Shown piece after piece: positions 20,096 through 56,755 of a DNA stretch of 64,000 bases. The notes beneath the pieces were generated by a model. It was not told the origin of the DNA and did no database searches. It saw only the letters and a program-made list of their open reading frames with translations. Every line of letters begins with the position of its first letter. Within the stretch, counting starts at the first letter, position 1. The position numbers and the translations under genes were made by a program. The DNA comes from an uncultured Gammaproteobacteria bacterium (GTDB lineage Bacteria; Pseudomonadota; Gammaproteobacteria; CAWCPV01): the NCBI GenBank assembly GCA_963797555.1, contig CAWCPV010000003.1, positions 288,001-352,000 on the forward strand, in the 5' to 3' direction.

Positions 20096-20099
20096 CTGC

Positions 20100-21712: not shown

Positions 21713-21717
21713 GCGCC

Positions 21718-22631: not shown

Positions 22632-22770
22632 CGGCCGCCCCAGCAGGCCCCGGCGGGCCCCAGACAAGCCGAAGCCCTGCGAGGGACAGGGCTTCGGAGG
22701 AGGGCACAGACCAGACGAGACGACAGAATAACACATCCCTGGCCGCGCGTAGCTCCCCTCGGGAGGTGCC

Positions 22771-24692: not shown

Positions 24693-24956
24693 GCACCACC
24701 TACCACCTTCACCCGCTGGCCGACGCAGGCGCAGATCGCGGGGTGGTTGCGGGTGAGCCGAGCAACTATCGAAAATTGGGTGACAACCAATGATAAAGTT
24801 GTCATTGGTTGTCACCAGTCCAACTCGCCCGAGCGCATGCGCGGACGCTCTGGTCCCGGACCGAGTCGAGGCTCTGTGGAAGGTGGATGTGTCTGAAGCT
24901 TCAGGCATATGAGAATATTATCAAACGCTTCAGAACGTTGTGGCCCAACGTTTCAC

Positions 24957-25040
24957 GGGTCCTCCCTGGCCTCCTCCTCTGCGGTCCAACGGGCCTGCGG
25001 GATTTAGCTAGCGTAACGCCTCCCTAGAGGATTCCTTCCC
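24957..25040 (+). other. putative lambda-like cos packaging site (A)
   Basis: GGGTCCT (identical to lambda cosQ) ... gcgggatttagcta; conserved in B and C; directly before terS. Confidence 0.6.
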
Positions 25041-25046
25041 TACCCA

Positions 25047-25547
25047 ATGGGCATCAACGTCAACAAAAAACAGTTGGCCGAGATCTTCGGATTGAGTCAG
25101 AGGACCTTGACCGAGCTGCAACGCGCAGGATTGCCCATCGAGGAGCGCGGCGCCCGCGGCCGGCCGCCATGTGTACGATACAGCCGCGGTCCACGCGTGG
25201 CTCCTGCGGCCGCGAGTCCGTGAAGCATCGCGCCAACGGCGATGGGCGCCCGCTGGACCTGGACCAAGAGCGCGCCAAGCTCGCAGCCGCTGATCGCGCA
25301 TTGAAGGAACAAACCTTGCGCGAGAGGTCGGGCGAGCTGATTGACGCTTCCTGGGTGCGTACTACCGCTCGCACGCTCTGCGCAACCGCCCGCGAGCGGT
25401 TCGAGGTCCTGCCAGACCGCCTGGCTGCAATTCTCGCGGCCGAGAGCGACGAACGGCGGGATTTACGATCTGATGGCGAACGAGATCCGCGCGGTGCTGG
25501 CCGAGTTTGCCGAAGGTTCGATCGAGAAGTTTGGCGAAGTAAGGTAA
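25047..25547 (+). CDS. Nu1-like terminase small subunit (frameshifted)
   Basis: VNKKQLAEIFGLSQRTL..GLP, DQERAKL..AD..L..GELID pattern of lambda gpNu1. Confidence 0.75.
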
Positions 25548-25649
25548 TTCCACAGGAGACGAAAATGCACAAGCCACCCGATGACTTCACCCAGAGCCAG
25601 AGCCCGCGTTTGCTGATGCAGCGCGCCGTGGTTTCACTCCCGACCCGGT

Positions 25650-25873
25650 ATCGCCGCCACGGCTGTCCTTGTTGGCGCCGCCTGTGGACCGAGATCGAGC
25701 CGCACCTGAAGAAAGGCGGACATTCCTGCCGCGTTCACGTGCGAGTTCACGCGCACCGAGGCCGAGTTGGCCGCCCGGATCAGCTCGCCTTGCTGGCGGG
25801 CATCGGTCAACGTCGAGGCCGGCGCCCAGGCCGCACCGAGGCCGCCAACGGCAAGCCCGATACCGCGAGCGTA
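25650..25873 (+). CDS. conserved small satellite ORF (frameshifted; bounds approximate)
   Basis: LWTEIEPHLKK..EAELAARIS homologous to 41982 and 63416. Confidence 0.55.
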
Positions 25874-26166
25874 ATACGGGTGTGCCGAGCATTCAGCCAC
25901 CACGCATTCGAAACCTCCCGCCGGCGTGAGGTTGTGCTCCAGGATTTCTCTGCTTGTCCTCCTTGCTGAGCTTCGCTCGTCCGCGCATGCGCTCGGGCGA
26001 GTTGGACTGGTGGTAACCTTTACCAGAGCTGGTATTGGTTACCAGCTAATTCGCTACGGTCTGCTGGCTCACCCGCAACCACCCCGCTCGGGCGAGTTGG
26101 GCTGGTGGTAACCAATGACAACTTTATCATTGGTTACCACCCAAACCTCCGGGCGGTACTAGCGCC

Positions 26167-26740
26167 ATGAGCCGCGAACGCCTCGCCCAAGCTGCTGACG
26201 CTGGCCGAGAGACACGATCCGGCGTTGCACGCGTGGTTCCGTGACTCGCTGGCACGGTGGAAGTGCGGGTCTACCCCTGGAGACCGCCCTGGAGCTGGCA
26301 GGCCCGGGCGCTCGTCGGCTTCGGGATTCCGCCATCCGCGCCTGGCCGAGCTGCTGGACCCGGACGGCCGAGTACTCGCGATGGCACGTCGCTGGGCTTG
26401 TGATGCGTGCGCTCGCCAGGAAGCACACCAGCGGGGAGATTGGCGCCGCGGTCCAAGCTATTCTGGCATTGGGGTGCGTGGTTCCGGGGCGCCGCCGAGT
26501 GTGGAGCCTCCTGGAAGGCAGACAGGGCGGGATGCTGCTGAAGGAGGAGGAGCGCAGACAGGGCGGAGACGGGAAGTGCGCGGTTGCCGGCAACGTTGCC
26601 GGAACCGTCGAATCCTACGCCCGTGCTCTCGAGGAGGAGGAGCGCAGACAGTTGGCGAACGGACTGACAAACTTCCGCCAATATTGGCGGAAGTCTCACC
26701 CTACGCCCGTGCTCTCGAGGAGCTCGCGTTCTTTGCAATT
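26167..26740 (+). CDS. conserved pre-capsid satellite ORF (frameshifted; end approximate)
   Basis: MSRERL..LAERHDPALHAWFRDSLARW..RDSAIR homologous to 42295 and 63692. Confidence 0.6.
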
Positions 26741-26808
26741 CTCGCCATCGCAATTGCAAAACGACTCTGTTTCGATAGAGCCTCAGAATTTATCGCGAGG
26801 CGCAGATA

Positions 26809-27885
26809 ATGCAGAAGAACGATAAGCCAGATTGACACGCCCGATTCCATTCTCGCCGCGAGCGACGTTCGAGCCGCGATGGGCGATTGGCTCGCGCTTC
26901 GCGCGGGCCTTCTGCGCGCTGATGATGCGGACCCGATAGCCGGTGGAGCTGACTGGATCCGCTCGCACCGGCCACGCTCGCGGATGTTGCTTGCCATCTG
27001 GCGCGGCCGGGGCAGTGGCGTCACCGCTCACGAGGCGGCCCGAGAGTTTCACGGCACCGATTTTACCGATTCGTTGAGCGTCGGATTGTCCCAAGTGGCA
27101 GGCATCGCGTATTCGCGGCAGGCCGCGGAGAATTCGCAAATCTGCAAAGACGTTACGGTCCCGAATCTCCAACCCGTCGCGTTTCCTGTTTTGGACGTTG
27201 GCGAACTCAGCGAAACGCCGAATGCGGGTGGTCCCGTGCAATTCGCGACCACGTTTGCGAGCGATGGCGTATTTGGAAGCAGCGAATGTTTTCTCTGCGC
27301 GTTTCCTGATTCCGCGCAGACTTGCTCGTAAACGACAACGCTGGCATTGTCGCGCTGGCCGTTGCTCAGTTATCTGGGCATGCTGCTGCGTCTCGAGGCC
27401 CAGGCCATCGCTGCAATTCTCGCGAGCCAACGCGAACTTGGGCGATGGCGCGCGCATTGATCGGCATCGGAAAACACCGCGAGCGGTGGGATCACGAGCG
27501 TAACGGGTCTTGCTGCTGCCGCTGGGAAGCTGCGTACGCGGAGCACGTCGGGCGGAAACGTTGCGAACGTGAAGGCGCGCTTCTTGGCTCGTTGCTGGCG
27601 ATGCGGAGTTTGCCGCGTTGACGACCCTTGGCGGTATCATCCGGGCGGCACACCGCGGATCGATGTGGTCACGAATGCGTGGCTACCGGCTGCGACAGCT
27701 TCGTACCTTTTAGCATCTCCAGATGACGCGCCCACTTTCATTCGGCTCGGGCTGACTTCTCCACCGAAGCCAAGCGTGATCCGACGCCGAGCGCCTCCGG
27801 TTTCGACGGATTGGCGTATGTCGTCGAGCACGTTTTCGGAGTTGCGGCTGTTTCTCGGGATGGACTTGTGAAGATAACGGCGTGA
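26809..27885 (+). CDS. major capsid homolog of A (several frameshifts)
   Basis: Nucleotide-colinear with the intact capsid gene 42942..44012. Confidence 0.75.
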
Positions 27886-28329
27886 ACGCTATTCAGGTTA
27901 AACCCGTCGTCCGCCAATTCGTAAATGCTGGCATTTGCCGACGCTGCGCCTCGCAGCTCGCCAAAGCTCTTCGCGTCGAGCCACCCGGCGCGCTGTCGGT
28001 CACGATTTGCGCGCGGCGCGGGATGAGCTTTGATCGCAAGCCGCAATTCATCCGGCGACTTGGTTTTCGAGCCGATCGAGGCGGGCGATGTGTTCGCGAA
28101 TGTGGGGACCTGGAACGCTGCAATGAGCCGCGATTCCTGGATCATGATGCGCCTGCGACCCGACGGCTCTCTGACCTTCTTCCGTTCGTGTCTTTCGGCA
28201 GAGGAAGGCGCGGCGATGGCTTCTCGCGATTCGACGCTGCGCCTGATGACCCGCCGGCAGGCCCTGGAGGCGGAGCTGGGTCAGGAGCGCACGATGGTCA
28301 CCGGGCGCATCGGCCGCCGCCGCAGATAA
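27882..28329 (+). CDS. two small conserved post-capsid ORFs (CxxC protein; 28123..28329)
   Basis: GICRRCA and DSTL.LM.R motifs shared with 44018 and 44287. Confidence 0.55.
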
Positions 28330-28987
28330 GCCCACCGGCCGCGCCCGATTGGGAACGTCGGGCCGGGATTGCCGCTCCGGTCGAGGCCCGCTCAACCTCG
28401 CCACGCGGCGCTGAGCAGTGCCCTGGCCTCGAGCCTCGTCACCTCGGGGCTGGATTGTTTCACCTCTCCTCCATTCGCCCCGGCTTCGTGCTGGGGTATT
28501 TTTTTGGCCGCCATCCAGTGGCGCAGGGGTGGAGCCACCCAGGACTTAACTTCCTTAATTGTCTATGTAGGCCTGTGGGACTTTTGGTGGGACTTTTTGA
28601 AGTCCCAGCAACGCGCTTAGTGCGGCAACGCTATTGCCGTTGCTGGGACACGCGGGACTTTTGCGGTCCTAGGACTTGTCCCAGGTAGGTAGTCCCATGT
28701 ATCAACAAGCCTTCGGAATGCGCCGGCGAGGTTTACCAACTTTTGGAGTGTACACACTGTTTTTGAGTAAATCCCGACTGAGTGTCTGCTGACTCACCCC
28801 CTGCCGCTCTGCCGCCCGACGCCCCGAGGAAGGCCCCTCTCGCGTCGCTGGAGGCGAGATCGCACCGGCCCCCTTGCCAGGATACCCACCCCGCCCTTGA
28901 CGGCCGGTCGGGCGCCCATGCCCCGGTCGGAATTTTACGGATATTTTACGGAAGCCTCGCTAGCGATCCTGTAAGTCCTTGTTTGTT

Positions 28988-29063
28988 TGGCGTCCCCAAC
29001 GGGATTCGAACCCGTGTTGCAGCCTTGAAAGGGCTGTGTCCTGGGCCTCTAGACGATGGGGAC
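28988..29063 (-). tRNA. tRNA-Glu(TTC)
   Basis: 76-nt cloverleaf, anticodon arm cagcc-ctttcaa-ggctg, GTTCGAATC, CCA. Confidence 0.97.
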
Positions 29064-29115
29064 CTGGATACGTATTGGAACTGAGTGGCGGTTTCGGCAG
29101 AAACGCCGATGGGGT

Positions 29116-29191
<76 letters not shown>

Positions 29192-29233
29192 GCAACGATA
29201 GGGCGGAAACTCTACGCCACGCCCATTCTAGTG

Positions 29234-36842: not shown

Positions 36843-36896
36843 GGGAGTTGGTGGGCGATGCTGGGTTCGAACCAGCGACCCCTGCCGTGTGAAGGC
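36843..36896 (-). repeat. att site: duplicated 3' part of tRNA-Val
   Basis: Matches 46659-46712. Confidence 0.95.
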
Positions 36897-37352
36897 GTTT
36901 TTGACCCACTGCAAGACTAAGGCCGTCGCTACTGTGGCAACGGACATTAGTAGACGCTTGTGCACCAAAGTAGCCCGAAATATATTCAACTTGCACTTAC
37001 ATAGCACTTACGGTTGGGACGCTGCCGTTGCACTTACTGCGCGGGCGCGGCTGGTGAGGCCAGTTGACGCGAGGAAAAATTGCCGTCAACATGGGAACGC
37101 GACTGTGCTATGACCCCCGCACGGATGGCGGGGCGAGTCAGCGTCGGGTTTCGCGCGTCATCGAGCGCGCTAACTTGTCAGCGCACCTGACAACTTTTTG
37201 GCCGCCCGTTAGAGACTGAGTACGTTCAGCCAGGGCCTAGATTCTCTCCCGGGCGGGGGATTCAGGCACTGGTGCGTCCGTCTTTGAAGGACCCATAAGC
37301 CGATCCTCTTCGCCCTGGGGGATCGGCTTTTCGCGTTTTGAGGGTCTAACCA

Positions 37353-37580
37353 ATGGGCGATCGTTCGCTTTCCCGCCGCGGGATGACTTCCGTCGAGGCG
37401 GCCGAATATCTCTCTGTCAGTGATTCCTTTTTGCGGCGCTCGCGTTGCGAAGGCGACCGCGAAGGCCGCGCGGCCGGGCCACCTTGGTCCAAGATCGGCC
37501 GACGCATCATCTACGCGATAGCCAGACCTGGACAGCGTGGTTGGCTCGCACCGCCGCACCAGTCCCACCAAGGCTGCCTG
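37353..37580 (+). CDS. AlpA/HTH_17 excisionase-like protein (frameshifted; end approximate)
   Basis: EAAEYLSVS...GPPWSKIGRRIIY. Confidence 0.75.
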
Positions 37581-37726
37581 ACCATGGCCGCCGATCGCCG
37601 CTACACCCCGCCTCCACCGCAGGCAGACCGCCGCCGCCCTGGACCGCCACCGGAGCGGCCCCGGCACCGCTCCGAACGGTTGCCGCGCGTGCCGACACCG
37701 GCGCTGAAGAAGAAAGGGCGCATGTC

Positions 37727-38014
37727 ATGAGCGCCACCAGGAGCGCTCGGGGCGACCCCGGGCCCCAGAACGACGACGGCCCCGAGGCTGGGCACCTCGA
37801 GGCCGCGGAGCAGACAACACCGACGCCTCAGGATACCACAACTTGCGCCGCGTGCGAACGCCCGGCCGCCCCAGGGCGCATCCTCTGCGCGCAGCACCAG
37901 CGCGATCTCACCCGCCTTCCATGGCGCTGCTCAGTCTGCGGTGAGCCCAACGACGGCCGCGAGAGCGGGCTGTGCTTGCGGCACCTACGCGAAGTCAGTG
38001 GGTGGCCGACATGA
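37727..38014 (+). CDS. small Cys-rich protein
   Basis: CAAC..LCAQH..CSVC..LCLRH; homolog at about 58980-59150. Confidence 0.55.
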   Translation: MSATRSARGDPGPQNDDGPEAGHLEAAEQTTPTPQDTTTCAACERPAAPGRILCAQHQRDLTRLPWRCSVCGEPNDGRESGLCLRHLREVSGWPT

Positions 38015-39934
38015 GCAAATCCCTATATGAACGCGGCCTGGAGCTGGACCGTGCGGAGGCCAAGGTCGACGCTGCCCGCAAACGCCGTGAGCGGCGCAAG
38101 GCCAACGGGGCGGGCGAGGCCCCGGCGACCGACGCGGATGGCAGGCCGGTTATTCACTGGGTGGGTGGTGCGCTTGAACAAGCGGTGTCCGCTGCCGAGG
38201 CCGCCATCCTGGCCGACGGAGGGGAGGCCATCTACCAACGCGCGGGATCATTGGTGCGCGTGGTACGGCTGCCGTCCGGCACCGTTCGAGGATTCAAGCG
38301 CCCCGATGGCACGCTGGGCATCCTGCCCGTGGAAGCCGGCTATCTCACGGAGCGGTTCAGTGTGGCCGCTAGTTGGGTACGCTGGGACGACAGGACGATC
38401 GATGGGTGGAAGCGGATCGCCCCCCCGCCCAAGCGGCGAATACCTACCTGGCTCGGAGCGGGAAGTGGAGCGTGCCAGCACTCACGGGGCTGGTCGCGAC
38501 ACCCACGCTGCGCCCGGATGGAAGCCTGCTGAGCCTCCCTGGGTACGACGAGGCGACCGGGCTGCTGTACGTGCCGGGAGGACTCGTATGTCCTTCGATA
38601 CCCGATCATCCGACCTATGAGGACGCGCGAGCCGCGATCGAGGTACTGCGCGAGCCGTTGGCGGGCTTCCCGTTTGCCGACACGCAAGCCATAGCGTCGT
38701 ACTGTCCGCAATCCTCACGGCGCTCTGCCGCCATGCGCTGCGCTCGGCACCGCTGCTCGGCTTCGATGCGACCGTCATGGGGAGCGGCAAGACTCTTCTG
38801 GCCGACGTGGTGGCGATGATAGCCACCGGCCGCCGAGCTGTCATCATGGCGCACTCGCCCCAACCCGAAGAGGAACGTAAGCGCCTGCTCTCTGTGCTGT
38901 TGGATGGCGCGCCGCTGGTGGTGGTCGACAACATCGGGGCGACGTGGACATCCGACGCGCTGTCCGCAGTTCTGACCGCGGAGACCTTCAAGGATCGCGT
39001 GTTGGGGGCGAACCGCATGGTAGAGGCACCTACGGCGGTTACCTGGCTCGCGACGGGGAACAACCTGACGTTTGCCGGAGACCTGGCAACGCGCGTGTTG
39101 GTGGCTCGCATCGAGCCTCAGTGTGAGCGCCCCGAGGAGCGTCGGTTCGAGCGCGATCTCTATGACTGGATACCACGGCACCGGGGAATCCCGGTGGCCG
39201 CCGCACTGACCATCCTGCGCGCATACCAGGAGTCGGGCAGGCCAGACATGAAGGTGAAGCCATACGGACGCTTCGAGGACTGGTCGTCATGGATTCGATC
39301 GGCGCTCGTGTGGCTCGGGGAAGCGGACCCTTGCGATACACGCGGCAGTATCGAGGACGCTGATCCGGTGCGATCTCAATTGCGGGATCTGCTAGGCGCC
39401 TGGCATGAGCGTTATGGCACTTCCGCGGAGACGATAGCGCGCGCCATCGATGGCGGAGGAGACCCACTGCGTGCAGCAATGTATGCGATTGCCGGAGAGC
39501 GCAACGACATCAACACGCGAAAGCTCGGGCGTTGGATGCTGCGGCACAAGGGGCGCATTGTCGACGGCAAGAGCTTTGGCCAGCACCGGAGCGGGCACGC
39601 GGCGCGATGGGCTGTCGTGGTGACTCAAAAAGAAGGTAGCGGTTATTGCTCTAAATGCGGTTACCCCCATAGGGTGGATCAAAATTGTCAAAACAACACA
39701 GATAGTGTGGATAATAAAGAGACCGACAATTCTGGGGGGGTGAGTGGGGCAAACCGCAAACATACCAGTAACCGCAGACCCGAGACCCGCCAACCCGGCT
39801 CCGGCGACCACCTCGTGCGCTGCGCCGATTGCTCGCGTTACCGTTGGGCAGAGCGTTGCGGCGCCGGGCTGTACTCGGGCGATCCGTTGAAGCCTAGGGA
39901 CTGTCCCGAGTTCGAGGTGCGATCAGGCACATGA
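38011..39934 (+). CDS. primase-associated P-loop ATPase/helicase (frameshifted)
   Basis: TPTLRPDGS..GYD, GSGKTLLA, VVDNI, ATGNN, GDLATR. Confidence 0.75.
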
Positions 39935-39947
39935 TGGAGGTGCAACG

Positions 39948-40367
39948 ATGAAGACGTTTCCAAAGTTCGATGCTGCGAAGCAGGGGTTACCAGCGTGGTT
40001 CGTCTATCAGACCGAGCCGCTGGATTTTTTCTTTGGGTTGTCGAGCCTGGAGCATGCCGCGAAGGACGCGCTTGCGATGGATGATGGCTATGGGCGCGAG
40101 AGATTGATGACCTCGCTGGTGAAGCAGGCCATGGAGGCCGCTTATGTGGTCTCCAAGGCGAAGGGTTCCTATTGGGAAGGAGACATTCGGGCGAGTGAGT
40201 TGTACGTTTTCGGAATACCGGACCCGGAGAACCATGGTGTGCGGCATGGATTCATCTGGAAACAGGACAACAACGGTACGACGTTCATCGTGAGTCCCGT
40301 ACAGATTCCTTGGCTAGAGGATAGCCTGTTGGTGGAGCAGCCACGCACCGGGACAGCCGGCGCATGA
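39948..40367 (+). CDS. hypothetical accessory protein
   Basis: RBS ggagg; WEGDIR..WKQDNNGTTF. Confidence 0.7.
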   Translation: MKTFPKFDAAKQGLPAWFVYQTEPLDFFFGLSSLEHAAKDALAMDDGYGRERLMTSLVKQAMEAAYVVSKAKGSYWEGDIRASELYVFGIPDPENHGVRHGFIWKQDNNGTTFIVSPVQIPWLEDSLLVEQPRTGTAGA

Positions 40368-40392
40368 CGTTCAACACGAGAGGGCAACCGAC

Positions 40393-40872
40393 ATGACGAA
40401 GAAGGACAAGACAGCCGTTCACAAAAAAGCGCGGGATGTGCGAATCGGCGGGCCGATCGCCCCAATGATTGTGGCGCTTGAGTGTGATCCTACGGGGGAC
40501 AATTGGCGCGTTTGCGGTGTGTGCGGCCGGGACATGAAAGACGACTACGGGGTGGTTGCTGAGGCCAAGCGAACGCTCTGGGATGCCGATGATTTTGTGG
40601 TGTGCGAGCATTGCATCAAGGATGGCGATGTGCCGGAGAAGCTCATAAAGCGCGCCAAAGCTCTGGAAGACAAAGCCGCAGATCTGCGAAATCTGGCCGG
40701 CCGAATAGTGGTCCCGAGCTTCGAGGATTGGCAGCGTGCGAATTATCGGCACGACGCCGCGTTCTGCCGAGCGCGCGGGTATCCCGTGGAGACGTTCGAG
40801 GAATGGATCGCGAGGCGGGAGAAGATCAAGGAGGAAAAAGAGCCCGTGGACGATCACACGGGAGCGATGTAG
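40393..40872 (+). CDS. hypothetical protein with two CxxC motifs
   Basis: RBS; CGVC..CEHC, coiled-coil-like segment. Confidence 0.65.
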   Translation: MTKKDKTAVHKKARDVRIGGPIAPMIVALECDPTGDNWRVCGVCGRDMKDDYGVVAEAKRTLWDADDFVVCEHCIKDGDVPEKLIKRAKALEDKAADLRNLAGRIVVPSFEDWQRANYRHDAAFCRARGYPVETFEEWIARREKIKEEKEPVDDHTGAM

Positions 40873-41159
40873 TTCGTGAGTGACAGACCTTCGAGGAGTA
40901 TTGCGAGGGGCGGTGGGAAATGAGCCGAGTTAATGCCAGAGATCGGAGAGGGTTGGAGCACTTGTCTTATCATTCGACAAGTGTTTGTTGCAAAATGTTA
41001 CCAATTGGTAACACTTCTTCATGGTGCCGTGAAGAAGTTAGGAGCGCCAGATTGCCGAAGCGGATGGGACGGTGAGGCACCAAACAGTCATGCGGTCTAC
41101 TGTTACAAATGTAACAGTAGCGGTTCTGACTTATTCTGTGACCAGAGAGATCTTCAAAA

Positions 41160-41240
41160 GGTACTCCCGGCCTTCCCCAATTGCGGCGGCCAAGCCCGCG
41201 GAATCTCGCTAGCGTAACGTCCCCCTAGAGGGTTCCTTCC
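41160..41240 (+). other. putative cos site (B)
   Basis: ggtactcccggcc..gctagcgtaacg..tagagggttccttcc, conserved with A and C. Confidence 0.6.
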
Positions 41241-41798
41241 TTGGGAAAGTTGGTTAATAAGCGAGCATTGGCGGAGATTTTCGACATCAGCGAGCGGACG
41301 ATTACCGGGCTGTTGAAGCTCGGGTTGCCCATCGAGAAGCGCGCTGTTCGAGGCCGTCCGCACGTGTTCGACACGGCGCACGTGGTTGCTTGGTTGATCG
41401 AGCGTGAGGCCGCCAAGCATAAACCCAGCAGCAGCAACGGCGATGGGCGGCGCCTGGATTTGGATCAGGAACGAGCCATGCTCGCAGCCGCTGATCGCGC
41501 GTTGAAGGAACAAACCCTGCGCGCGCGGTCTGGCGAGCTTGTTTCCGCATCCTGGGTGCGGACTTCCGCTCGAGCGCTCTGTGGAACCGTTCGCGAGCGG
41601 TTCGAGGTCCTGCCGGATAGACTGTCTGCAATTCTCGCGGCCGAGAGCGACGAGCGCAAGATTTATGATCTGATGGCACGCGAGATACGCTTTGTGCTAG
41701 GTGAACTCGCTGAGGGTTCGAAAGCTTTCGGAGGTTCCGATGATGTTGAAAAGACTGAGCCCACTATGGACAGCGACGGCGCGGATCGTCCCGCCTGA
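41241..41798 (+). CDS. Nu1-like terminase small subunit
   Basis: VNKRALAEIFDISERTI..GLP..FDTAHVVAW..DQERAML. Confidence 0.8.
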   Translation: MGKLVNKRALAEIFDISERTITGLLKLGLPIEKRAVRGRPHVFDTAHVVAWLIEREAAKHKPSSSNGDGRRLDLDQERAMLAAADRALKEQTLRARSGELVSASWVRTSARALCGTVRERFEVLPDRLSAILAAESDERKIYDLMAREIRFVLGELAEGSKAFGGSDDVEKTEPTMDSDGADRPA

Positions 41799-41981
41799 GC
41801 ACCACGAAAAACTCCGCGCGCTGTTCGAGGTAATGGAAGAGCGCCTTGACGTAGAGTTGGATCTAACCGTCGCTCTCGTCGCAAAACAGGCGATAGCCGA
41901 TACCTTGGACGCTATACGAGCCGGATTCAGCGCGGGATTCGCACCACCACCACCACCGAAACACTGATAGGAGATCGCACC

Positions 41982-42194
41982 ATGCCAAAACTCGAATTAC
42001 TCGCCGAACTGTGGACGTGCATTGCGCCAAGGCTCAAGAAGGCGGACCTGGACGAAGCCCACGCTTCGTTCGTTCGCGTCGAGGCCGAGCTGGCCGCCCG
42101 GCTCTCTGCCCTGTTGGCGGGTGCGGTCAACGTCGAGGCCGGCGCCAAGCCTCCACCGAGGCCACCGACCGCCTCACCGGTTCCGCGAGCGTAA
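41982..42194 (+). CDS. conserved small satellite ORF
   Basis: RBS ggag; homologs in A and C. Confidence 0.65.
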   Translation: MPKLELLAELWTCIAPRLKKADLDEAHASFVRVEAELAARLSALLAGAVNVEAGAKPPPRPPTASPVPRA

Positions 42195-42294
42195 TACGGG
42201 AAGATCCGCGGATGTCGGGCGATGGCCATCAGCATCCGGATCGGTTCCGCCAACGTTGGCGGAACCATCATCCTACGCCCGCGGGACTAGCGCC

Positions 42295-42861
42295 ATGAGC
42301 CGCGATCGCCTCCACCGGCTTCTGACGCTGGCCGAGCGTTCCGATCCGGCGTTGCACGCGTGGTTCCGGGACGCGCTCGCCCGTTGGGAACACGGGCTCG
42401 CCATGGAGCAGGCCCTGGAGCTCCGAGGCGGTTCGGCCAGGGCGCTGCGCGACGCTGGCATCCGGCGCCTGGCTGAGCTGCTGGATTCGGACGGACGGCA
42501 CTCGAGGTGGCATACCGCGGGGCTGGTGGAGCGGGCGCTCGCTCGCCGGCACACCACCGGGGAGATCGGCGTACTGGTGGAGCAGATCATCCGATCGGGT
42601 TGCAGCGTGGTTCCGAAGCGGCGGCAGATCTGGTCCGTCTTGGGGGTGCGCGAGGAGGCGCAGGCGGCAGAGCGGCAGGGGGTGAGTCAGCAGACACTCA
42701 GTCGGGATTTACTCAAAAACAGTGTCATGACTCCAAAAGTTGGTAAACCTCGCCGGGTGAGTCAGCGGACGGTTAGGCGAGATATGGACAAAAACAGTGT
42801 CATGACTCCAAAAGTGTCCAAACCTCGCCAGCGCATCATCTACCAGATCAGCCGGGGCTGA
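42295..42861 (+). CDS. conserved pre-capsid ORF with 2x75-bp tandem repeat in its tail
   Basis: Homologs in A and C; repeat units start at 42680 and 42755. Confidence 0.65.
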   Translation: MSRDRLHRLLTLAERSDPALHAWFRDALARWEHGLAMEQALELRGGSARALRDAGIRRLAELLDSDGRHSRWHTAGLVERALARRHTTGEIGVLVEQIIRSGCSVVPKRRQIWSVLGVREEAQAAERQGVSQQTLSRDLLKNSVMTPKVGKPRRVSQRTVRRDMDKNSVMTPKVSKPRQRIIYQISRG

Positions 42862-42941
42862 GGTTTCGCAATTCTCCCCATCGCGTTTGCAAACCGACCC
42901 TGTTTCAATAGAGCCTCAGAATTTATCGCGAGGCGCCGCCA

Positions 42942-44012
42942 ATGCCCATGCCGAAGAGCACATCCCGGTTAACGAAACCGATCGCATTCTCCCGCGGAGA
43001 CGTTCGAGCCGCGATGGGCGATTGGCTCGCGTTACGCGCAGGACTTGTGCGTGCTGAGGAGGCTGATCCAATAGCGCAGGAGCTGCTAGATCCCCTAGCG
43101 CCTGCGAACCTCGCGGACGTGGCTTGCCACCTGTCAGGCCGCGGCAGTGGCGTCACAGCGCACGAGGCGGCACGAGAGTTTCACAGCACCGATTTTAGCG
43201 ACGCGCTGGCGGTCGGGCTGTCCCAGGTGGCTGGCGTTTCTTATGCTCGGCAGGCCGCTGAACATTCCGTCATCGTCAAGGATCTCACGGTGCCGGATCT
43301 CAGGCCCGTCGCATTCCCTGTCATCGACGTGGGCGAACTCACCGAGACGCCGAATGCTGGCGGACCTATCGAGTTCGCTTCGACATTCGCGAATGATGGC
43401 GTATTTGGCGCCGCCAACGTTTTCTCGGCACGTTTCCTGATTCCGCGCCGTTTGCTCGTCAACGATGACGCTGGCGTTGTCACGTTGGCGGTCGCTCAGC
43501 TATCCGGACATGCTGCTCGTCTCGAGGCCCAGGCCATCGCTGCGATTCTCGCGAGCAACCCGAACTTGGGCGATTCCGCGGCACTGATCGACACCGGAAA
43601 CACCGCGAGCGGCGGCATTGCGAATGCCACGGGATTAGCCGCCGCGGCTGGACTCATGAGGACTCGAGTTACTTCTGGCGGGAATGTCGCGAATGTGCGC
43701 GCGCGCTTCTGGCTGGTTGCTGGCGATGCTGAGTTTGCCGCGCTGACGACCCTTGGCGGTATCTATTCGGGAGGCCCGCTGCGGATCGAGGTGGCCACAA
43801 ATGCGTGGCTTCCGGCTGCGACTGCGAGTTATTTACTGGCGTCTCCAGACGACGCTCCGACATTCGTTCGTTTGGGTTTGACTTCACCACCGAAGCCGAG
43901 CGTAATTCAACGTCGCGCACCGCCCGGTTTCGACGGATTGGCGTATGTGATTGAGCACGTTTTCGGAATTGCGGCTGTTTCTCGGGATGGACTTGTGAAG
44001 GTAACGGCATAA
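42942..44012 (+). CDS. major capsid protein homolog (Mu gpT-like HK97 fold), intact
   Basis: HSTDFSDAL, IPRRLLVNDD.G, A..LE...LASN.NLGD, GLAAA...MR, RFWLV, YL.ASP. Confidence 0.72.
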   Translation: MPMPKSTSRLTKPIAFSRGDVRAAMGDWLALRAGLVRAEEADPIAQELLDPLAPANLADVACHLSGRGSGVTAHEAAREFHSTDFSDALAVGLSQVAGVSYARQAAEHSVIVKDLTVPDLRPVAFPVIDVGELTETPNAGGPIEFASTFANDGVFGAANVFSARFLIPRRLLVNDDAGVVTLAVAQLSGHAARLEAQAIAAILASNPNLGDSAALIDTGNTASGGIANATGLAAAAGLMRTRVTSGGNVANVRARFWLVAGDAEFAALTTLGGIYSGGPLRIEVATNAWLPAATASYLLASPDDAPTFVRLGLTSPPKPSVIQRRAPPGFDGLAYVIEHVFGIAAVSRDGLVKVTA

Positions 44013-44017
44013 CGGAC

Positions 44018-44290
44018 ATGAGCAGTTTGACACGAGTTCAAGCCCTAGCCGCTGCTCGGAGTTTCCAGCGCCATTCCGGGATTTGCCGACGCTGCGCCAC
44101 TGCGGTGGCTGCCGAGCTTCGCGATTCTGCTCCCGGTATCCCGGCGATTGCCGTTTGCGAATCCGGCGCGGTTGTGGTGGGATTGTTCGCGATGTTGACC
44201 GTCGACGGGGCGTTGCTCGTGCAGCCCTTGGACGTGACCGAGCTGCCGCCCGACACGACGTTCTGCCCGGCGCCGGAGCGCGTTCAATGA
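44018..44290 (+). CDS. small CxxC protein
   Basis: Coupled to capsid gene; homolog in A. Confidence 0.6.
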   Translation: MSSLTRVQALAAARSFQRHSGICRRCATAVAAELRDSAPGIPAIAVCESGAVVVGLFAMLTVDGALLVQPLDVTELPPDTTFCPAPERVQ

Positions 44291-44490
44291 ACCGCTGGGT
44301 TTTATGTCGTCGCACCAACGGCGCCCTGCGGCTGGTGCGCGAGGTCACAGAGTCGGAAGGACGAGCAATGGCCGCCGCTGACTCCACCTTGACCTTGATG
44401 CCCAGGGATGAGGCGATCGCTCTCTGGCTGTCTAAGCCGCGGTCCCAGGCCACCGGGAAGATTGCGGACGTGCCCGGCCGCCGCCGCTGA
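44287..44490 (+). CDS. small conserved ORF
   Basis: ATGA overlap; homolog 28123..28329. Confidence 0.6.
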   Translation: MNRWVLCRRTNGALRLVREVTESEGRAMAAADSTLTLMPRDEAIALWLSKPRSQATGKIADVPGRRR

Positions 44491-44829
44491 GCTGATTTTG
44501 CAGCACCCCGATCGGGACTCGTCCCCCCGATCGGGCTCACCTCTCCTGCATTTGCCCCGGCTAAGGTCGGGGCTTTTTTTGGGCGGTCGCCGCCATCGGG
44601 GAGCTACTCGGGGTGGACGTGCGGCAGGGGGAGCGGACGGACCTGGGTGGCACTGTCCCGCGCGCGGGACAGTTACCGCGGCAGACCGCATCGAAGTAAC
44701 CGCGCCATCATCGGGGAGCTGCTCGGGTTGGACGCCGTGCGCGGCAAACATACAGACCCAACATTGCGCGGCTGTGCAATGATACCGCCGAGCCACCGCC
44801 CGAACGATAAAACTTCACGGCGCCGTGAA

Positions 44830-45152
44830 GGCAGACCCCTCGCGCGCGGAAGCCACACCCCCTTGCTTAGTACAAAGCAAGGGGTCAACGGCAGACCCCT
44901 CGCGCGCGCGGAGCCACCTTCTGACCGTCCACCCGCGAAGCCTTGCGCTGGGCAGACCCCTCGCGCGCGCGGAGCCACCCTTTCAGGCCAGACTGCGGAC
45001 GGACGGCGAAAAGCAGACCCCTCGCGCGCGCGGAGCCACCCCAGCCATCCTTCCTCGACCAACTCCCGCGGAGGCAGGCGCGCGCGGAGCCACCCTTCCC
45101 ACAGGGTGCCGCTGCTCCGGTAGGTGAGCAGACCCCTCGCGCGCGCTAGCAC
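44830..45152 (-). CRISPR. orphan type I-E-like CRISPR mini-array: 6 repeats, 5 spacers
   Basis: 28-nt repeat GGCAGACCCCTCGCGCGCGCGGAGCCAC at 44830, 44890, 44951, 45012, 45073 (7-nt deletion), 45127 (degenerate); five unique 33-nt spacers; AT-rich region on the right. Confidence 0.85.
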
Positions 45153-45214
45153 AAACATGCCATAATGATTGTCCTTGGTTTTTACTTTTACCGGACAGAG
45201 CGGAGAAGGGACTA

Positions 45215-45721
45215 ATGGCACATGCCGCGGCTGGCGTCGAGGCCACCATACGGGGATTTGGGAGCACACTGCACGGGGTCATGCATGCTCCTAACCTTGC
45301 CCTCTTGCGGAGCGTCGACCAGACTGTCGACAGTCTGGCGCGCGAGCAAGAGATAGTCGCTGGATTCGAGCAGATTGCCCGCGGAGCGCTGCAAGCGCTC
45401 AAGGATTGCCGGCCAAAGCGGGCGATCGACCTGGATGGCACGTTGTGCGAGCAGTTGTTGTCAGGCGAGACCGCCATGAAGGCCCGGATTGACGAGTGTC
45501 AGAAGAAAAGGCAAGCGGCGTTTGATGACCCGATGCTTCGCGGTGCGCATGAAAGTGCGGTTGTGTCGGAGTACGACCGCTCGATCGCCTTATGGCGCGG
45601 CCTTCACAATGCGACCGTCGAACTACGCTGGGCTGTGATGGAGTCTGATGCGGACATGGAAGCACCTGTGTCCGAAGAAGCTGAATCGTTGGAAGGCCTT
45701 ATCTCGTCTCTGAAGGCGTAA
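45215..45721 (+). CDS. putative antitoxin
   Basis: Directly upstream of RelE-like gene; acidic tail ESLEGLISSLKA resembling RelB-type antitoxin tails. Confidence 0.55.
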   Translation: MAHAAAGVEATIRGFGSTLHGVMHAPNLALLRSVDQTVDSLAREQEIVAGFEQIARGALQALKDCRPKRAIDLDGTLCEQLLSGETAMKARIDECQKKRQAAFDDPMLRGAHESAVVSEYDRSIALWRGLHNATVELRWAVMESDADMEAPVSEEAESLEGLISSLKA

Positions 45722-45727
45722 AGGTGC

Positions 45728-45997
45728 ATGGCCAAAACCCTAGGGGTCAAAGGGTTTAAGCCGTTACCGCGGTTCAAGCGACTCTTCAGGAAACTGGATC
45801 CAAGCGTTCAACAGCAGGTTAAAGATACGCTTGCTGACCTTCAGAAGAACCCCATCCCACCAGGGCGTAGAGTCAAGAAGATGGAGGGACACAAGGATGT
45901 GTGGGAGGCGAGGGTCAACGACAATTTTAGGCTGACCTTCAAGATAGAGGGGGATACTGCAATCCTTCGGAACGTCGGCACCCACGATATTTTGTAA
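45728..45997 (+). CDS. RelE/ParE-family toxin
   Basis: 89 aa basic; FKRLFRKL..KKMEG..WEARVN..FRLTF..LRNVGTHDIL. Confidence 0.8.
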   Translation: MAKTLGVKGFKPLPRFKRLFRKLDPSVQQQVKDTLADLQKNPIPPGRRVKKMEGHKDVWEARVNDNFRLTFKIEGDTAILRNVGTHDIL

Positions 45998-46146
45998 CAC
46001 CCATTCTGTAACACCGGCGTCGGTAGGCGCCGGGCTATTGGGACGCGGCACCGCCCCCACGATGGCGGGCGCAGGCGTCACAGGACGCCCCAGGCGTCGC
46101 GATCTCGGCCGACTCCATAGGGTGGTATCTCCCCCGGAAGCGCGGC

Positions 46147-46497
46147 TCACTGGTCCAGCTCGACCGCCTCGAATTTAATCCAGAACTCCCGCGTGTCGCC
46201 CTTCAGCCTCACCTGCATGAGGCCGGAGAACATCGCCGTGTCCACCTCATAGACCTGCTGGCCGTCCTTGAACACGATGCACCGGCCCGCCACGACCGCG
46301 ACCGTCAGCAGCTTCTTGAACGCCTCTAGGTCGTGATCACTCGCGAGCCGACCGAGCTTGTCATAGAGATCCCGGTCGACGCAGCCGACGTGCGAATCCC
46401 CCTTGATGTGGCCAGTCAGGGACGCCTGCACAGGCGCGATGCTCAGCAGCAGCCCGAACATCATCCCTAGGCATAGTGCGCCTTCTCTTTTGGTCAT
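46147..46497 (-). CDS. small secreted hypothetical protein
   Basis: Signal peptide, two Cys in mature part. Confidence 0.6.
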   Translation of the reverse strand: MTKREGALCLGMMFGLLLSIAPVQASLTGHIKGDSHVGCVDRDLYDKLGRLASDHDLEAFKKLLTVAVVAGRCIVFKDGQQVYEVDTAMFSGLMQVRLKGDTREFWIKFEAVELDQ

Positions 46498-46664
46498 AAG
46501 CCACCCTACCCTGACCCCGCCCCCGCGCGGGGTTTTTGTGCCTGCCGACGCATCGTAACAGCACCGTAACGCGTTACGGGTAACGGTCGGTTGCGATGCA
46601 CTTACAGAGCACTTACGCCTGACCGTCGGCTTTTTCTCACCCTTGCCGAGACCCTTCTGGGAGT

Positions 46665-46739
46665 TGGTGGGCGATGCTGGGTTCGAACCAGCGACCCCTG
46701 CCGTGTGAAGGCAGTGCTCTCCCGCTGAGCTAATCGCCC
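46665..46739 (-). tRNA. tRNA-Val(CAC)
   Basis: GGGCGATTAGCTCAG..ctgcc-ttcacac-ggcag..GTTCGAACC..ACCA. Confidence 0.96.
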
Positions 46740-46793: not shown

Positions 46794-48691
46794 TGTAGCG
46801 CCAAAGTCGTAATGTCCCCTTTGACCAAAGTCGTAATGTCCCCTTTTGGTACTCGAAGGGGGACGTATGGAAGAAGGGGTGATCACGATGAGCCGGCGAG
46901 AGTTGGAGCGACTTGAGGTGATGCAGCGGGTGGCGGGCAGGCGGATCAAACAGGGCGATGCGGCCCGCATGCTGGGGCTATCGGTTCGGCAGGTGAAGCG
47001 CCTAGTGTGTGCGTACCGGCAGGACGGGGCAGCGGGCTTGGTGAGCAAGCGCCGGGGTCGCCGGTCCCATCAGCGCATCCCGGAGGCGGAGAAGGCGCGT
47101 TGTCTTGCCATCGTCCAGTCTCAGTACCCCGACTTCGGCCCAACGCTTGGGGCTGAGTATCTGGCCCAGGCGCACGGGTTTCCCTACTCGGTGGAGACCC
47201 TGCGCGGCTGGATGTCTGAGGCCGGGCTGTGGCAACGAGGCCAAGCCAAGGCGAGCCGTCCCCATCCCCCGCGTGAGCAACGCCCTCGGCTGGGCGAGCT
47301 GATCCAGATCGAGGGCAGCCCGCACGACTGGTTCGAGGGCCGGGGGCCGCGCGTGAGCCTCATCGGCTTCATCGACGATGCCACCAGCCGGGTGATGGCC
47401 GCCCGCTTCGCACCGGTGGAGTCGAGCCGGGCTTACCTCAGTGTGCTCGCGGCGTATGTGCGCCGTCATGGGTGCCCAGTGGCCTTCTATAGCGCGCCGC
47501 CACTCCATCTTCACCAAACACGACCCGCAAGACCCCGAGCCCACCCAGTTCGAGCGCGCGCTGGGGAGCCTCGACATCGCCTCCATCCAGGCCCTCTCCC
47601 CGCAGGCCAAGGGGCGGGTGGAGCGGCTGTTCCAGACCCTTCAGGACCGCCTGGTCAAAGCACTGCGGATGGCACACATCCAGGACATCGACGCCGCCAA
47701 CGTCTTGCTCGACACTTACCTCGAGCGGCACAACGCGCGCTTCGCCGTCGCGCCCGCACCCCCGCAGGATACCCACCGGCCCTGGAGCGGCTCGGTCGCC
47801 GAGCTCTCCCACCTCTGCTCGCTGCAGCACGCGCGCACCCTCTCCAAGAACCTGGTGGTCAGCTTCAGGGGTCAGCGTTACATCCTCCAGACCCCGGCCC
47901 ACGCCCCGCGCTATGGCCTGCGGGGACGGCGCATCACCGTATGCGAGCACCCCGACGGCACCATCGAACTGCTCAACGGCACCGAGGTCCTGCCGTACAG
48001 AGTCTTCGATGAGCGCCGCGACGGGCCTGCCGACCGCAGCGTCGATGACAAGACGCTCAACCAACGGGTCGACCAGGCCATCGCCCGCCTCGCCCCGAGA
48101 ACGCCCCGGAAGCCCCCGGCAGATCACCCTTGGCGGCGACCCTTGCACCCCCATCCCAGACCAACCGCCACCAGCAAGAACTGCCCCTAACTCCCTGAGG
48201 TAAGCCCCCGGCTTTGCCGGGGGACTCACCGAGGTTTGACCTATACGACGGTCGTCGTGAATCTCCAATCTCCGCCAAGAGAAGGAGACGCACGATGAAA
48301 GAGTAGCAGAGTCTGAGCCACACGAAGTGGGACTGTAAGTACCATGTGATATTCATCCCGAAAGCGCAGGAAGAAGCGGATCTTCGGGGCGCTGCGCCGC
48401 CACCTGGGACAGATCTTCCACGAGTTGGCGGGCCACAAGGTGTCCACAGTCGGCTTGGATGAGGCGATGGTGAGGGCCTACATCCGGAACCAAGACCAAC
48501 AGGACGAGCGATACGAGATCAGCTAACGCTGGGGACATAGGTCCAGCCGCCTTGGGCGGCTCCCGGTGTTATGGCGCCTTTGAGGCGCTCACCCAATAAG
48601 CCCCCGGCTTCGCCGGGGGTGAGTTAACTCTCGCCTCAAGGGGACATCTCTACTTTGCAGAAAAAGGGGACATTTCTACTTTGGGTTGACA
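46794..48691 (+). mobile_element. IS1202-family (ISNCY) element; transposase 46867..48190 frameshifted
   Basis: TGT..ACA ends with repeated aaagt..aatgtcccc motifs; 15-bp target duplication cgtgccgcgaatgtg; GELIQIEGS.HDW, QAKGRVER.F.TLQDRL. Confidence 0.88.
48193..48628 (+). mobile_element. internally deleted IS200 derivative (MITE-like), copy 1
   Basis: Both hairpin ends present; tnpA lacks the HUH segment. Confidence 0.85.
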
Positions 48692-50553: not shown

Positions 50554-50990
50554 CTCCCTGAGGTAAGCCCCCGGCTTTGCCGAGGGACTCACCGAGGTTT
50601 GACCTATACGACGGTCGTCGTGAATCTCCGATCTCCGCCAAGAGAAGGGGATCCACGATGAAAGAGCACCAGAGTCCGAGCCACACGAAGTGGGACTGTA
50701 AGTACCATGTGGTATTCATCCCGAAGCGCAGGAAGAAGCAGATCTTCGGGACGCTGCGCCGCCACCTGGGACGGATCTTCCACGGGTTAGCGGGCCACAA
50801 GGTGTCCACAGTCGGCTTGGATGAGGCGATGGTGAGGGCCTACATCCGGAACCAAGACCAACAGGACGAGCGATACGAGATCAGCTAACGCTGGGGACAT
50901 AGGTCCAGCCGCCTTGGGCGGCTCCCGGTGTTATGGCGCCTTTGAGGCGCTCACCCAATAAGCCCCCGGCTTCGCCGGGGGTGAGTTAAC
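50554..50990 (+). mobile_element. internally deleted IS200 derivative, copy 2
   Basis: Near-identical to 48193..48628 with the same deletion junction. Confidence 0.85.
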
Positions 50991-51019
50991 TGGCGGGCAG
51001 TTGGAAATCAGCCGAATCA

Positions 51020-53506: not shown

Positions 53507-54160
53507 GAGCGCCATCCAGATCGCCCGGAGGTTCGCAGGCCGGCAGCGGAACTTCACCGGAGAGAATTTTTGGGCGCGCGGGTACTTTGTGTCCACGGTC
53601 GGCTTAGATGAGGCGATGGTCAGGGCCTACATCCGGAACCAAGAGCAAGAGGACGAGCGCTACGATCAGCTAACGCTGGGGACATAGGTCCAGCCGCCTT
53701 GGGCGGCTCCCGGTGTTATGGCGCCTTTGAGGCGCTCACCCAATAAGCCCCCGGCTTCGCCGGGGGTGAGTTAACTGGGTCTCGCACCACAGCGCGACTC
53801 ACCGCTCCAGCCCTTTGATATACCCCACGACGTTGGACACCGCATACTTCGGCGGTATGTTCAGGCACATGTGCACGTGATCGGACATCAGGTGGCCTTC
53901 AACCACCTTCGAGTCCTTGTGGCCCGCCAACTCGTGGAAGATCTGTCCCAGGTGGCGGCGCAGCGCCCCGAAGATCCGCTTCTTCCTGCGCTTTCGGGAT
54001 GAATATCACATGGTACTTACAGACCCACTTCGTGTGGCTCAGACTCTGGTACTCTTTCATCGTGCGTCTCCTCCTCTTGGCGGAGATTGGAGATTCACGA
54101 CGACCGTCGTATAGGTCAAACCTCGGTGAGTCCCCCGGCAAAGCCGGGGGCTTACCTCGG
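53507..54160. pseudogene. IS200 halves: 3' half on + (53507-53776), 5' half with DHVHM on - (53810-54160)
   Basis: FWARGYFVSTVG and hairpin ends. Confidence 0.8.
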
Positions 54161-56584: not shown

Positions 56585-56701
56585 CCTGACCCGCCCCTCA
56601 GTTCCCGTGAGTCCGGTACTTCGAACCGGCTACCTCGGGTTCTCTTTGCCGGTAGCACCGACTTACTCACGCATGCGACGGGATCCTCCGCTTTCCCTTG
56701 T

Positions 56702-56755
56702 GTGCCCGGGGCCGGATTCGAACCGGCACGGCCGAAGCCAGAGGATTTTAAGTCC
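56702..56755 (-). repeat. att site: 3' fragment of tRNA-Leu(TAA)
   Basis: ggac-ttaaaa-tcc, variable arm, GGTTCGAATCC; 5' half absent; next to integrase. Confidence 0.85.

Follow-up and report, generated by a model that had tools for sequence, protein, structure and literature searches.

What does a CRISPR array without cas genes do on an element that resembles a phage satellite? Cas-less arrays are known on viruses, prophages, and plasmids. The question is raised here by a stretch of 64,000 nucleotides (nt) of an uncultured gammaproteobacterium of the lineage CAWCPV01 (GenBank assembly GCA_963797555.1, contig CAWCPV010000003.1, positions 288,001 to 352,000), hereafter called the window. In a preliminary description, a mini-array had been noticed on a satellite-like element of this window, termed B. 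The present analysis identifies the locus as a CRISPR-type array of type I-E geometry that has no cas genes of its own and is carried as cargo by two sister satellite-like elements, B and E3. As judged from the sequences, use of the array in trans by the Cascade effector of the host is plausible, a view that is weakened by the decay of the locus. The interpretation favored here, with a probability of about one half, is that of an ancestral trans-acting I-E guide array which is now frozen and eroding and in which spacers 3 to 5, at most, would still be usable. The earlier observation is thus real and partly confirmed, but the array was cleaner in the description than it is in the sequence.

The array lies on the minus strand between 44830 and 45154, where six repeat units and five spacers of 33 nt form a genuine direct-repeat array. 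Its 28-nt repeat consensus matches the window three times at up to three mismatches, compared with no match in 100 dinucleotide-preserving shuffles. The start-to-start spacings from R1 to R6 are 61, 54, 61, 61, and 61 nt, the single value of 54 being explained by a 7-nt deletion in R2. Since the period of 61 nt is not divisible by three, the array is not a coding repeat. The five spacers are all exactly 33 nt long and mutually unrelated (at most 12/33 identical positions for any pair, the trailer unit included). Tandem Repeats Finder made no call on the array, which is the expected outcome for unique spacers. The array and the uniform spacer length were therefore described correctly, whereas the claim of six 28-nt repeats holds only in part: R1 is degenerate, R2 has 21 nt, R6 has 27 nt, and only R3, R4, and R5 are intact. 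In addition, the array continues to 44769 through a sixth 33-nt unit and a vestigial seventh repeat, both of which had been missed. From the leader side to the trailer side, the parts are as follows.

45155-45214, minus strand: A+T-rich leader-like stretch, 43% G+C (63% in the window as a whole), with equally low values in only 0.7% of 60-nt windows
45127-45154, minus strand: R1, the leader-proximal repeat with a degenerate 5' part, 21/28 identical to the consensus
45094-45126, minus strand: spacer 1, 33 nt, the sole spacer with matches in an ungapped genome scan
45073-45093, minus strand: R2, a 21-nt repeat whose 7-nt internal deletion removes the 3' half of the hairpin, so that the unit measures 54 nt, not 61
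45040-45072, minus strand: spacer 2, 33 nt, genome matches within the range of shuffles
45012-45039, minus strand: R3, intact repeat with one mismatch, at the last base
44979-45011, minus strand: spacer 3, 33 nt, between intact repeats; no genome match, first 23 nt absent from the viral contig collection
44951-44978, minus strand: R4, exact match to the consensus
44918-44950, minus strand: spacer 4, 33 nt, between intact repeats; no genome match, first 23 nt absent from the viral contig collection
44890-44917, minus strand: R5, exact match to the consensus
44857-44889, minus strand: spacer 5, 33 nt, a perfect 10-bp hairpin (-18.5 kcal/mol, z = -4.4; 0/200 shuffles fold equally well)
44830-44856, minus strand: R6, a variant of 27 nt that differs by an indel and a substitution and scores 38.6 bits against the repeat covariance model
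44813-44830, minus strand: terminator-like hairpin and T run from a terminator search, just past R6 within the trailer spacer
44797-44829, minus strand: sixth 33-nt unit (trailer spacer), homologous to Sc3, the last spacer of the E3 array
44769-44796, minus strand: vestigial seventh repeat, its match to the consensus confined to the first 7 nt

R1 departs from the consensus at six of its first eight positions and at the last base, and no stable hairpin is predicted for it. The leader-like stretch had been recognized earlier, and its low G+C content bears this out; the same 60 nt also constitute the complete upstream region of a toxin-antitoxin operon, divergent from the array, whose start is at 45215. 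Farther past R6, an extra copy of the 8-nt 3' end of the repeat is found on the minus strand at 44680-44687, 143 nt from R6, followed by a G+C-rich palindrome (44640-44670), and the stretch also contains two direct copies of a 32-nt sequence, 44588-44619 and 44703-44734, which agree at 88%. All of these could represent former array units in a later state of decay, or they could be due to chance.

Which effector could read such an array? The host genome assembly (20 contigs, 5.35 Mb, 84.6% complete) has Cas1 matches on five contigs and six arrays besides the two mini-arrays. The CRISPR load of this genome is unusually heavy, the six arrays comprising four repeat types (I-E, I-C-like, and two families of 36-37 nt). 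Its sole type I-E locus, on contig C9 (C9:241300-253400), is complete, with genes for Cas3, Cse2, Cas7, Cas5, Cas6e, and Cas1 and a 548-amino-acid (aa) frame without a Pfam match at the expected position of the large subunit. The C9 array consists of 55 repeats, all exact and 28 nt long, and of 54 spacers, 51 of which measure 33 nt, so that the 28/33 geometry of the mini-array is the same as that of the host. Profile searches of the genome found one Cas7e and one Cas6e, while searches for Cas6f and Csf2 found none; the contig carrying the window, C3, gave no match to Cas1, Cas7e, or Cas6e. It had been proposed that cas loci and further copies of the repeat be sought elsewhere in the genome. 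A complete I-E locus was indeed found, but the repeat occurs only in B and E3, as judged by scans with its 18-nt core at up to two mismatches, ungapped scans, and a covariance model. For the atypical effector that had been considered as a partner, no candidate was found.

In global alignment, the B repeat agrees with the host I-E repeat at 19 of 28 positions, a value reached by 2 of 2000 shuffles, and the E3 repeat Rc3 at 20 of 28 (1 of 2000 shuffles); the mini-array repeats as a whole fall at 19-21/28. The tail of the E3 repeat shares most of the 3' handle of the host I-E repeat, and for the first E3 repeat, Rc0, the predicted fold is a 5-bp stem followed by a tail of 7 nt. Read from the sequence and placed in the I-E register, the B repeat gives a stem with one non-pairing position. 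On these alignments, the mini-array repeats are I-E-like and related to the repeat of the host, yet clearly not the same. The likeness to type I-E claimed earlier is hence upheld by the geometry and by an identity beyond chance, but Rfam and semi-global comparisons give no signal, as detailed below.

Beyond this genome, the full repeat was absent at up to three mismatches from 60 same-class relatives, and the repeat covariance model found one weak match each (at most 29.3 bits) in 5 of 150 same-class genomes, without any array. The viral contig collection returned no match to the repeat core, two chance matches to a gapped two-repeat pattern, and one single match to the core of the E3 repeat. 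In the genome and metagenome contig collections, the core was matched at 13 and 77 loci, respectively, once per locus and never in an array; the flanks at the metagenome loci do not extend the repeat (best 24/28, of which 18 are forced by the pattern). Since the genome set contains only class-level relatives of this organism, absence of the repeat elsewhere is weak evidence.

The main new evidence that the array is a family trait rather than an accident is, on sequence comparison, a homologous array on the sister element E3 that had escaped the preliminary description. It lies about 1.8 kb past the end of the window (C3:354005-353801; L112:5802-6006), on the minus strand, and comprises four repeat units. 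Its placement is that seen in B, between the late-operon terminator and the tRNA-proximal attachment (att) site and in the same orientation. The right att of E3 is the 3' part of a tRNA-Leu gene, and right att, tRNA-Leu, and array together occupy C3:353801-354210. In Rc0 the first six 5' positions are replaced by an A run, Rc1 has a divergent 3' end in a unit of 53 nt, Rc2 carries a 1-nt insertion and is altered in its 3' part, and Rc3 is a clean repeat. The repeats of B and E3 are identical at the first 8 positions and at 20 of 28 overall, the differences being found mainly in the last seven positions.

Among the spacers, the two arrays share the trailer unit only. The trailer unit of B (44797-44829) agrees with the E3 spacer Sc3 at 25 of 33 positions, compared with 8-13 for the other 17 spacer pairs (binomial tail about 8e-8), and the repeat start that follows is identical at 7/7 positions. 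The leader-side spacers are unrelated. A common trailer combined with differing leader-side spacers is the pattern of polarized CRISPR growth; as the preliminary description had expected of a working array, the spacers are not invariant across related elements.

The family to which both carriers belong includes element A within the window, E3, an apparently intact element on contig C6, and pieces on C4 and C14. Integrase matches are present in A, E3, C6, and C4; the capsid gene of A has two stops, and that of E3 is fragmented by stops. The capsid of B is 61% identical to that of A, 49% to that of C6, and 38-40% to that of E3. Relatives of the satellite capsid were found neither in the viral contig collection nor in phage records, and among same-class genomes only 3 of the 249 scored gave matches, at 25-28% identity. 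Homology between B and A stops at the capsid stop (44008), and the remainder, up to the att site, is B-specific throughout. At the sensitivity of the repeat scans used, neither A, as already stated earlier, nor C6 has an array at the equivalent place. Given a capsid identity of only 38-40% between B and E3, the array has either been retained for long or been exchanged as a module; under retention and exchange alike, it behaves as cargo and not as random debris.

Element B itself spans about 9.9 kb (36843-46727) between att repeats at a tRNA-Val gene, with the array in the cargo at the tRNA-proximal end. Its description as an att-bounded satellite is supported by the two att repeats, a small terminase gene, and a capsid gene. 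The array is convergent with the late operon and lies just beyond its terminator, whereas the toxin-antitoxin-like module, which among the satellite elements is present in B only, is divergent from the array. The features of B, together with the left att of E3, are the following.

36843-36911, strand not assigned: left att of B, duplicating the 3' part of tRNA-Val; direct repeat of 69 nt, at 90% identity with 46659-46727
38777-39934, plus strand: C-terminal part of a primase/polymerase-like replication protein (phrog_29234, E = 5e-63, profile positions 566-861 of 887 only)
41241-41798, plus strand: small terminase subunit (Pfam Phage_Nu1, E = 3.9e-9; phrog_57, E = 5.7e-33)
42942-44012, plus strand: major capsid protein, an intact, stop-free frame (Pfam Phage_capsid_4, E = 1.3e-14)
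44018-44490, plus strand: two small conserved satellite genes (frames of 90 and 135 aa) at the end of the late operon, with homologues in the C3 and C6 sister elements
44554-44580, plus strand: strong intrinsic terminator-like site from a terminator search, closing the plus-strand packaging operon
45215-45997, plus strand: toxin-antitoxin-like pair, a 168-aa protein and an 89-aa RelE/ParE-like toxin (phrog_1213, E = 9e-11; weak, below-cutoff HigB/ParE matches)
46659-46739, minus strand: right att of B (46659-46727), a direct repeat overlapping the intact tRNA-Val gene at 46665-46739
56695-56755, strand not assigned: left att of E3, a 61-nt perfect direct repeat with C3:354121-354181

Consistent with the earlier statement that cas genes are lacking, comparison of the open reading frames (ORFs) of B with Pfam, NCBIfam, PHROGs, and PADLOC gave no convincing cas match; PADLOC matches to Cas10, WYL, and Csx3 (12.7-13.8 bits, E 0.006-0.02) were judged to be noise. 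Genes for portal, large terminase, or tail proteins were not found among the ORFs scanned, several of which have no family. A paralogue of the toxin-antitoxin pair is present at C9:329024-329834; its larger partner, of 168-171 aa, is helical and without a family match. The 279-aa satellite ORF of B contains a 75-nt tandem duplication (42663-42836) that is 96% identical to an inverted copy at 28718-28816, near the tRNA end of A.

The surroundings of B are rich in related elements. At least four capsid-bearing satellite-like elements stand beside tRNA genes within the 64 kb (12861-13985, 20000-29200, 36843-46727, and 56695 to the end of the window). They are interleaved with transposase genes of the ISAzo13, IS110, Tn3, DDE_3, and Mu types, and several of the capsid genes are broken by stops. 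Near-identical long direct repeats (up to 268 nt, 95-100%) at 48191-48631, 50554-50993, and 53589-53778 flank a region with a Tn3-type transposase.

The favored reading, an ancestral guide array acting in trans, would account for these observations as follows. The array would have been built by an I-E-type Cas1-Cas2 pair through ordinary, polarized spacer acquisition; growth of this kind is suggested because the spacers are exactly 33 nt long and the sister array shares only the trailer unit. Its transcripts would have been meant for cutting by Cas6e and loading into a Cascade supplied by the cell, the effector being the I-E Cas6e/Cascade of whatever cell the satellite occupies. Trans use of an I-E system is favored because a single complete I-E locus is present in the current host, where it shares the 28/33 geometry and has a repeat akin to that of the array. 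Today the array would be frozen and eroding, its first repeat having lost the 5' end and R2 half of its hairpin, while the carrier B has lost the integrase and half of the primase. Since the first repeat of both arrays is without its 5' end, further spacer insertion should be blocked, and processing into CRISPR RNAs (crRNAs) is now conceivable for spacers 3 to 5 at most.

Matches were found for spacer 1 only. It is identical at 29-31 of 33 positions to four gene copies of a Y1 or repetitive extragenic palindromic (REP)-associated tyrosine transposase family in the host genome; agreement with further copies (26-27/33) is no better than that of the best shuffles (23-26). The family is matched by Pfam Y1_Tnp (E = 6e-13 and 3e-11), and the NCBIfam model for REP-associated tyrosine transposases gives 80.0 bits for one copy (cut-off 80) and 59.1 bits for another. 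The spacer corresponds to the sense strand of the gene. As read from the alignment, its difference at position 4 is synonymous, which fits a real acquired fragment, and the difference at position 11 alters the codon. Because every copy found has at least two differences, the source would have been another member of the family; among 400 same-class genomes searched at up to three mismatches, two match, neither perfectly. The dinucleotide TT precedes the protospacer in all four close copies. One spacer of the C9 array matches C3:928510-928543 perfectly, with a second copy about 140 nt away, which is a self-target or a resident mobile element, and the flank of this protospacer differs from TT. 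The first spacer base is a pyrimidine in 5 of 6 units of B compared with 51 of 54 in the host array, a difference that is not significant (p = 0.11). The REP-associated transposase-like genes are multicopy and encode 232-252 aa (C3:779168, C3:781485, C3:414969, C4:653850, and others); two of the copies on C3 are only 2.3 kb apart.

A considerable body of observations weighs against the favored reading. Half of the repeats in B (R1, R2, and R6) and three of the four in E3 (Rc0, Rc1, and Rc2) are damaged. A search for sigma-70 consensus promoters in 45155-45214 found none on either strand, and the A+T richness there may reflect no more than a promoter for the divergent toxin-antitoxin operon. 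A six-frame Pfam search of B detected no integrase, nor did tblastn with the integrases of the sister elements as queries, and as only the C-terminal part of the primase is left as well, B is a defective satellite-like element; with the capsid gene of E3 broken too, present activity is doubtful. Aligned over 28 positions, the repeat of B and that of the host I-E array disagree at 9, including four of the seven in the 3' handle, where the other 3 are shared. Semi-global comparison against 200 shuffles detected no likeness of the B repeat to the six host repeats, and its minimum-energy fold, which leaves a 4-nt tail, is no better than those of shuffles (z = +0.7) and is not in the I-E register. 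Rfam CRISPR-DR models, searched up to E = 10, gave no match on the mini-array repeats, whereas in a control each host I-E repeat weakly matched CRISPR-DR28 (19.8 bits). The incompleteness of the assembly is counted on the same side.

The spacers add to this weight. Each copy found has two or more differences from spacer 1, and these include positions 4-5 of the seed. In ungapped scans of the genome, element B, and the host I-E locus, all other spacers of B and the spacers of E3 stay within the range of shuffles, and no spacer of either array matches the sister satellites above chance. Comparison by blastn of the whole B array with phage and plasmid records gave only chance-level hits (E >= 0.1), that of the E3 array with phage records only hits at E >= 0.7, and exact 23-mers of spacers 3 and 4 had no match in the viral contig collection; for the virus records, these negatives are to be read against a poor public coverage of viruses of this lineage. 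The proposed use against competitors thus found no backing, since none of the spacers yielded a target in a competitor, phage, or plasmid. Moreover, spacer 5 of B (44857-44889) and spacer 1 of E3 (L112:5945-5978) are perfect hairpins of 10 and 11 bp (z about -4.4 and -4.5; 0/200 shuffles each), an odd property for guides; a T run follows neither of them, and no match to either turned up anywhere searched.

Could the array instead be a pure relic, that is, a fragment of a chromosomal I-E array of a former host that was recombined into the element, never served the satellite, and decays as neutral DNA? The damaged repeats of both arrays, the defective state of both carriers, the lack of spacer targets and of a promoter consensus, and the sister elements A and C6 without an array would all fit. 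Such a fragment would not be expected, however, as homologous arrays in the same position and orientation in elements whose capsids have diverged to 38-40% identity. The differing leader-side spacers indicate that acquisition continued after the split or transfer, and a terminator-like site closes the array unit. A paired change in the common trailer unit also keeps the predicted pairs, an anecdotal point as it concerns two sequences only. A relic is held to be unlikely, though less so than the other alternatives. A lower probability is given to an RNA decoy, in which the repeat hairpins would sequester Cas6e or Cascade subunits from the I-E system of the host and thereby shield the satellite or its helper phage. 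Phage RNA anti-CRISPRs built from repeat mimics have been described (PMC10651486; review PMC11656645), the repeats resemble that of the host beyond chance, and the first E3 repeat keeps a clean hairpin with a 7-nt tail. The known examples, termed Racrs, are nevertheless solitary and close mimics of host repeats, in contrast to the 19-21/28 identity and the different handle seen here; the mini-arrays have also retained unique spacers of exactly 33 nt, and no host spacer aimed at the satellites was found.

The match of spacer 1 to four transposase copies and the adjoining toxin-antitoxin module might suggest regulatory or redirecting guides, with partly matching crRNA-like RNAs repressing genes or drawing Cascade to multicopy host sites. 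Precedents are, in the reports cited below, prophage regulatory mini-arrays and satellite solo vrRNAs aimed at host REP elements. This alternative is nonetheless quite improbable: complementarity of the spacers to the I-E cas locus of the host and to element B does not exceed that of shuffles, the mismatches of spacer 1 fall in the seed proximal to the protospacer-adjacent motif, and the structure is unlike VIPR RNAs with their tandem 5-nt units. An unseen cognate cas locus with identical repeats, which would lie on a helper phage or in the 15% that the assembly lacks, is made thinkable by an assembly that is 84.6% complete and by a host with no fewer than five Cas1 loci and six arrays besides, from all of which the mini-array repeat is distinct. 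Against it stand the absence of the repeat from the rest of the 5.35 Mb, the single Cas7e and Cas6e with no Cas6f or Csf2, the lack of any array with the repeat core (18 or 19 nt) in the collections of viral, genome, and metagenome contigs scanned, and that of any array, by model or pattern, in 60 and 150 same-class genomes, which together leave this option very improbable. Finally, an imperfect, G+C-rich palindrome as the repeat, perfect hairpins in two spacers, and the link of spacer 1 to a REP-associated transposase gene could all recall a structured repeat outside CRISPR, such as REP or bacterial interspersed mosaic elements (BIME). With all copies in direct orientation at exact 33-nt unique intervals, two loci only instead of dispersal in the genome, and a geometry identical to that of the host I-E array, this explanation is scarcely credible.

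How does the locus compare with systems already described? Virus mini-arrays, as characterized in a review for the Saccharolobus portogloboviruses SPV1 and SPV2, have one or two spacers and host-identical repeats and mostly target related viruses (PMC11656645). The array on B resembles them in being an array without cas genes on a mobile element, with an effector presumed to come from the cell and with sister elements that differ in spacers. It differs from them in its five or six spacers, in a repeat of 19-21/28 identity to that of the host, in the lack of a target found in related elements, and in a carrier that is satellite-like and not a virus. The earlier parallel to virus mini-arrays was not supported by the comparison of repeats, since that of B is identical to no host repeat; with repeat identity and targets both wanting, the array is not filed as a virus-borne mini-array, although it may act in a similar way. 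Plasmid-borne orphan CRISPR arrays are Cas-less cargo of mobile elements (10.1101/2021.06.04.447074; PMC9071438), and the array on B is likewise Cas-less accessory cargo, on a different type of carrier.

Racr units are solitary repeat units that closely mimic host repeats (PMC10651486; PMC11656645). The mini-arrays share with them a repeat-like RNA, here predicted, that is encoded by a mobile element and related to the host repeat, but they have regular, unique spacers and only moderate repeat similarity (19-21/28). Classification as an RNA anti-CRISPR unit was rejected on the grounds of an array with spacers and of this identity. In prophage regulatory mini-arrays and CreA-type RNAs, the source describes spacers that pair with cas or toxin promoters (10.1101/2023.03.03.530964). 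Degenerate repeats, an adjoining toxin-antitoxin module, and one spacer that imperfectly matches host genes are common to both; a CreA-type regulator was nonetheless rejected, as matches to the host I-E locus and to element B are within the range of shuffles, though short, seed-only pairing might still take place.

VIPR vrRNAs consist of tandem 5-nt GGYNN units with a conserved tail and a non-contiguous code, and satellites carry solo VIPR guides aimed at host REP elements (bioRxiv 10.64898/2026.10.15.759431). Like these solo vrRNAs, the mini-array offers guides without protein machinery, and its spacer 1 points to a REP-linked multicopy family; the solo guides may serve as a conceptual parallel to spacer 1, and no more. 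A VIPR RNA was rejected in view of the 61-nt period of a classical 28/33 repeat-spacer array. With respect to the carrier, the size of about 10 kb and the att repeats at a tRNA gene, found likewise in E3 at tRNA-Leu, are those of satellites like the phage-inducible chromosomal islands (PICIs), whereas an integrase and a full replication module are missing from B; no helper phage was identified. Full-text searches, as far as they reached into the literature, found no natural CRISPR array on a phage satellite, which is no proof of absence.

The value of these findings is limited by the decay of both arrays and their carriers, the lack of close sequenced relatives, the lack of a spacer target that shows a role, and the lack of a detected promoter. 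Should the arrays nevertheless work in trans, satellites would join the elements that borrow CRISPR effectors of the host, and the pair formed by B and E3 would show cargo that is kept or traded across deep satellite divergence. In a more far-reaching version, held to be improbable, a capsid-encoding satellite family would carry Cas-less I-E guide arrays that commandeer the resident Cascade against unsequenced helpers or rivals or, via spacer 1, at host sites. If this were true, satellite arrays commandeering Cascade would be the CRISPR counterpart of the solo guide RNAs of VIPR satellites.

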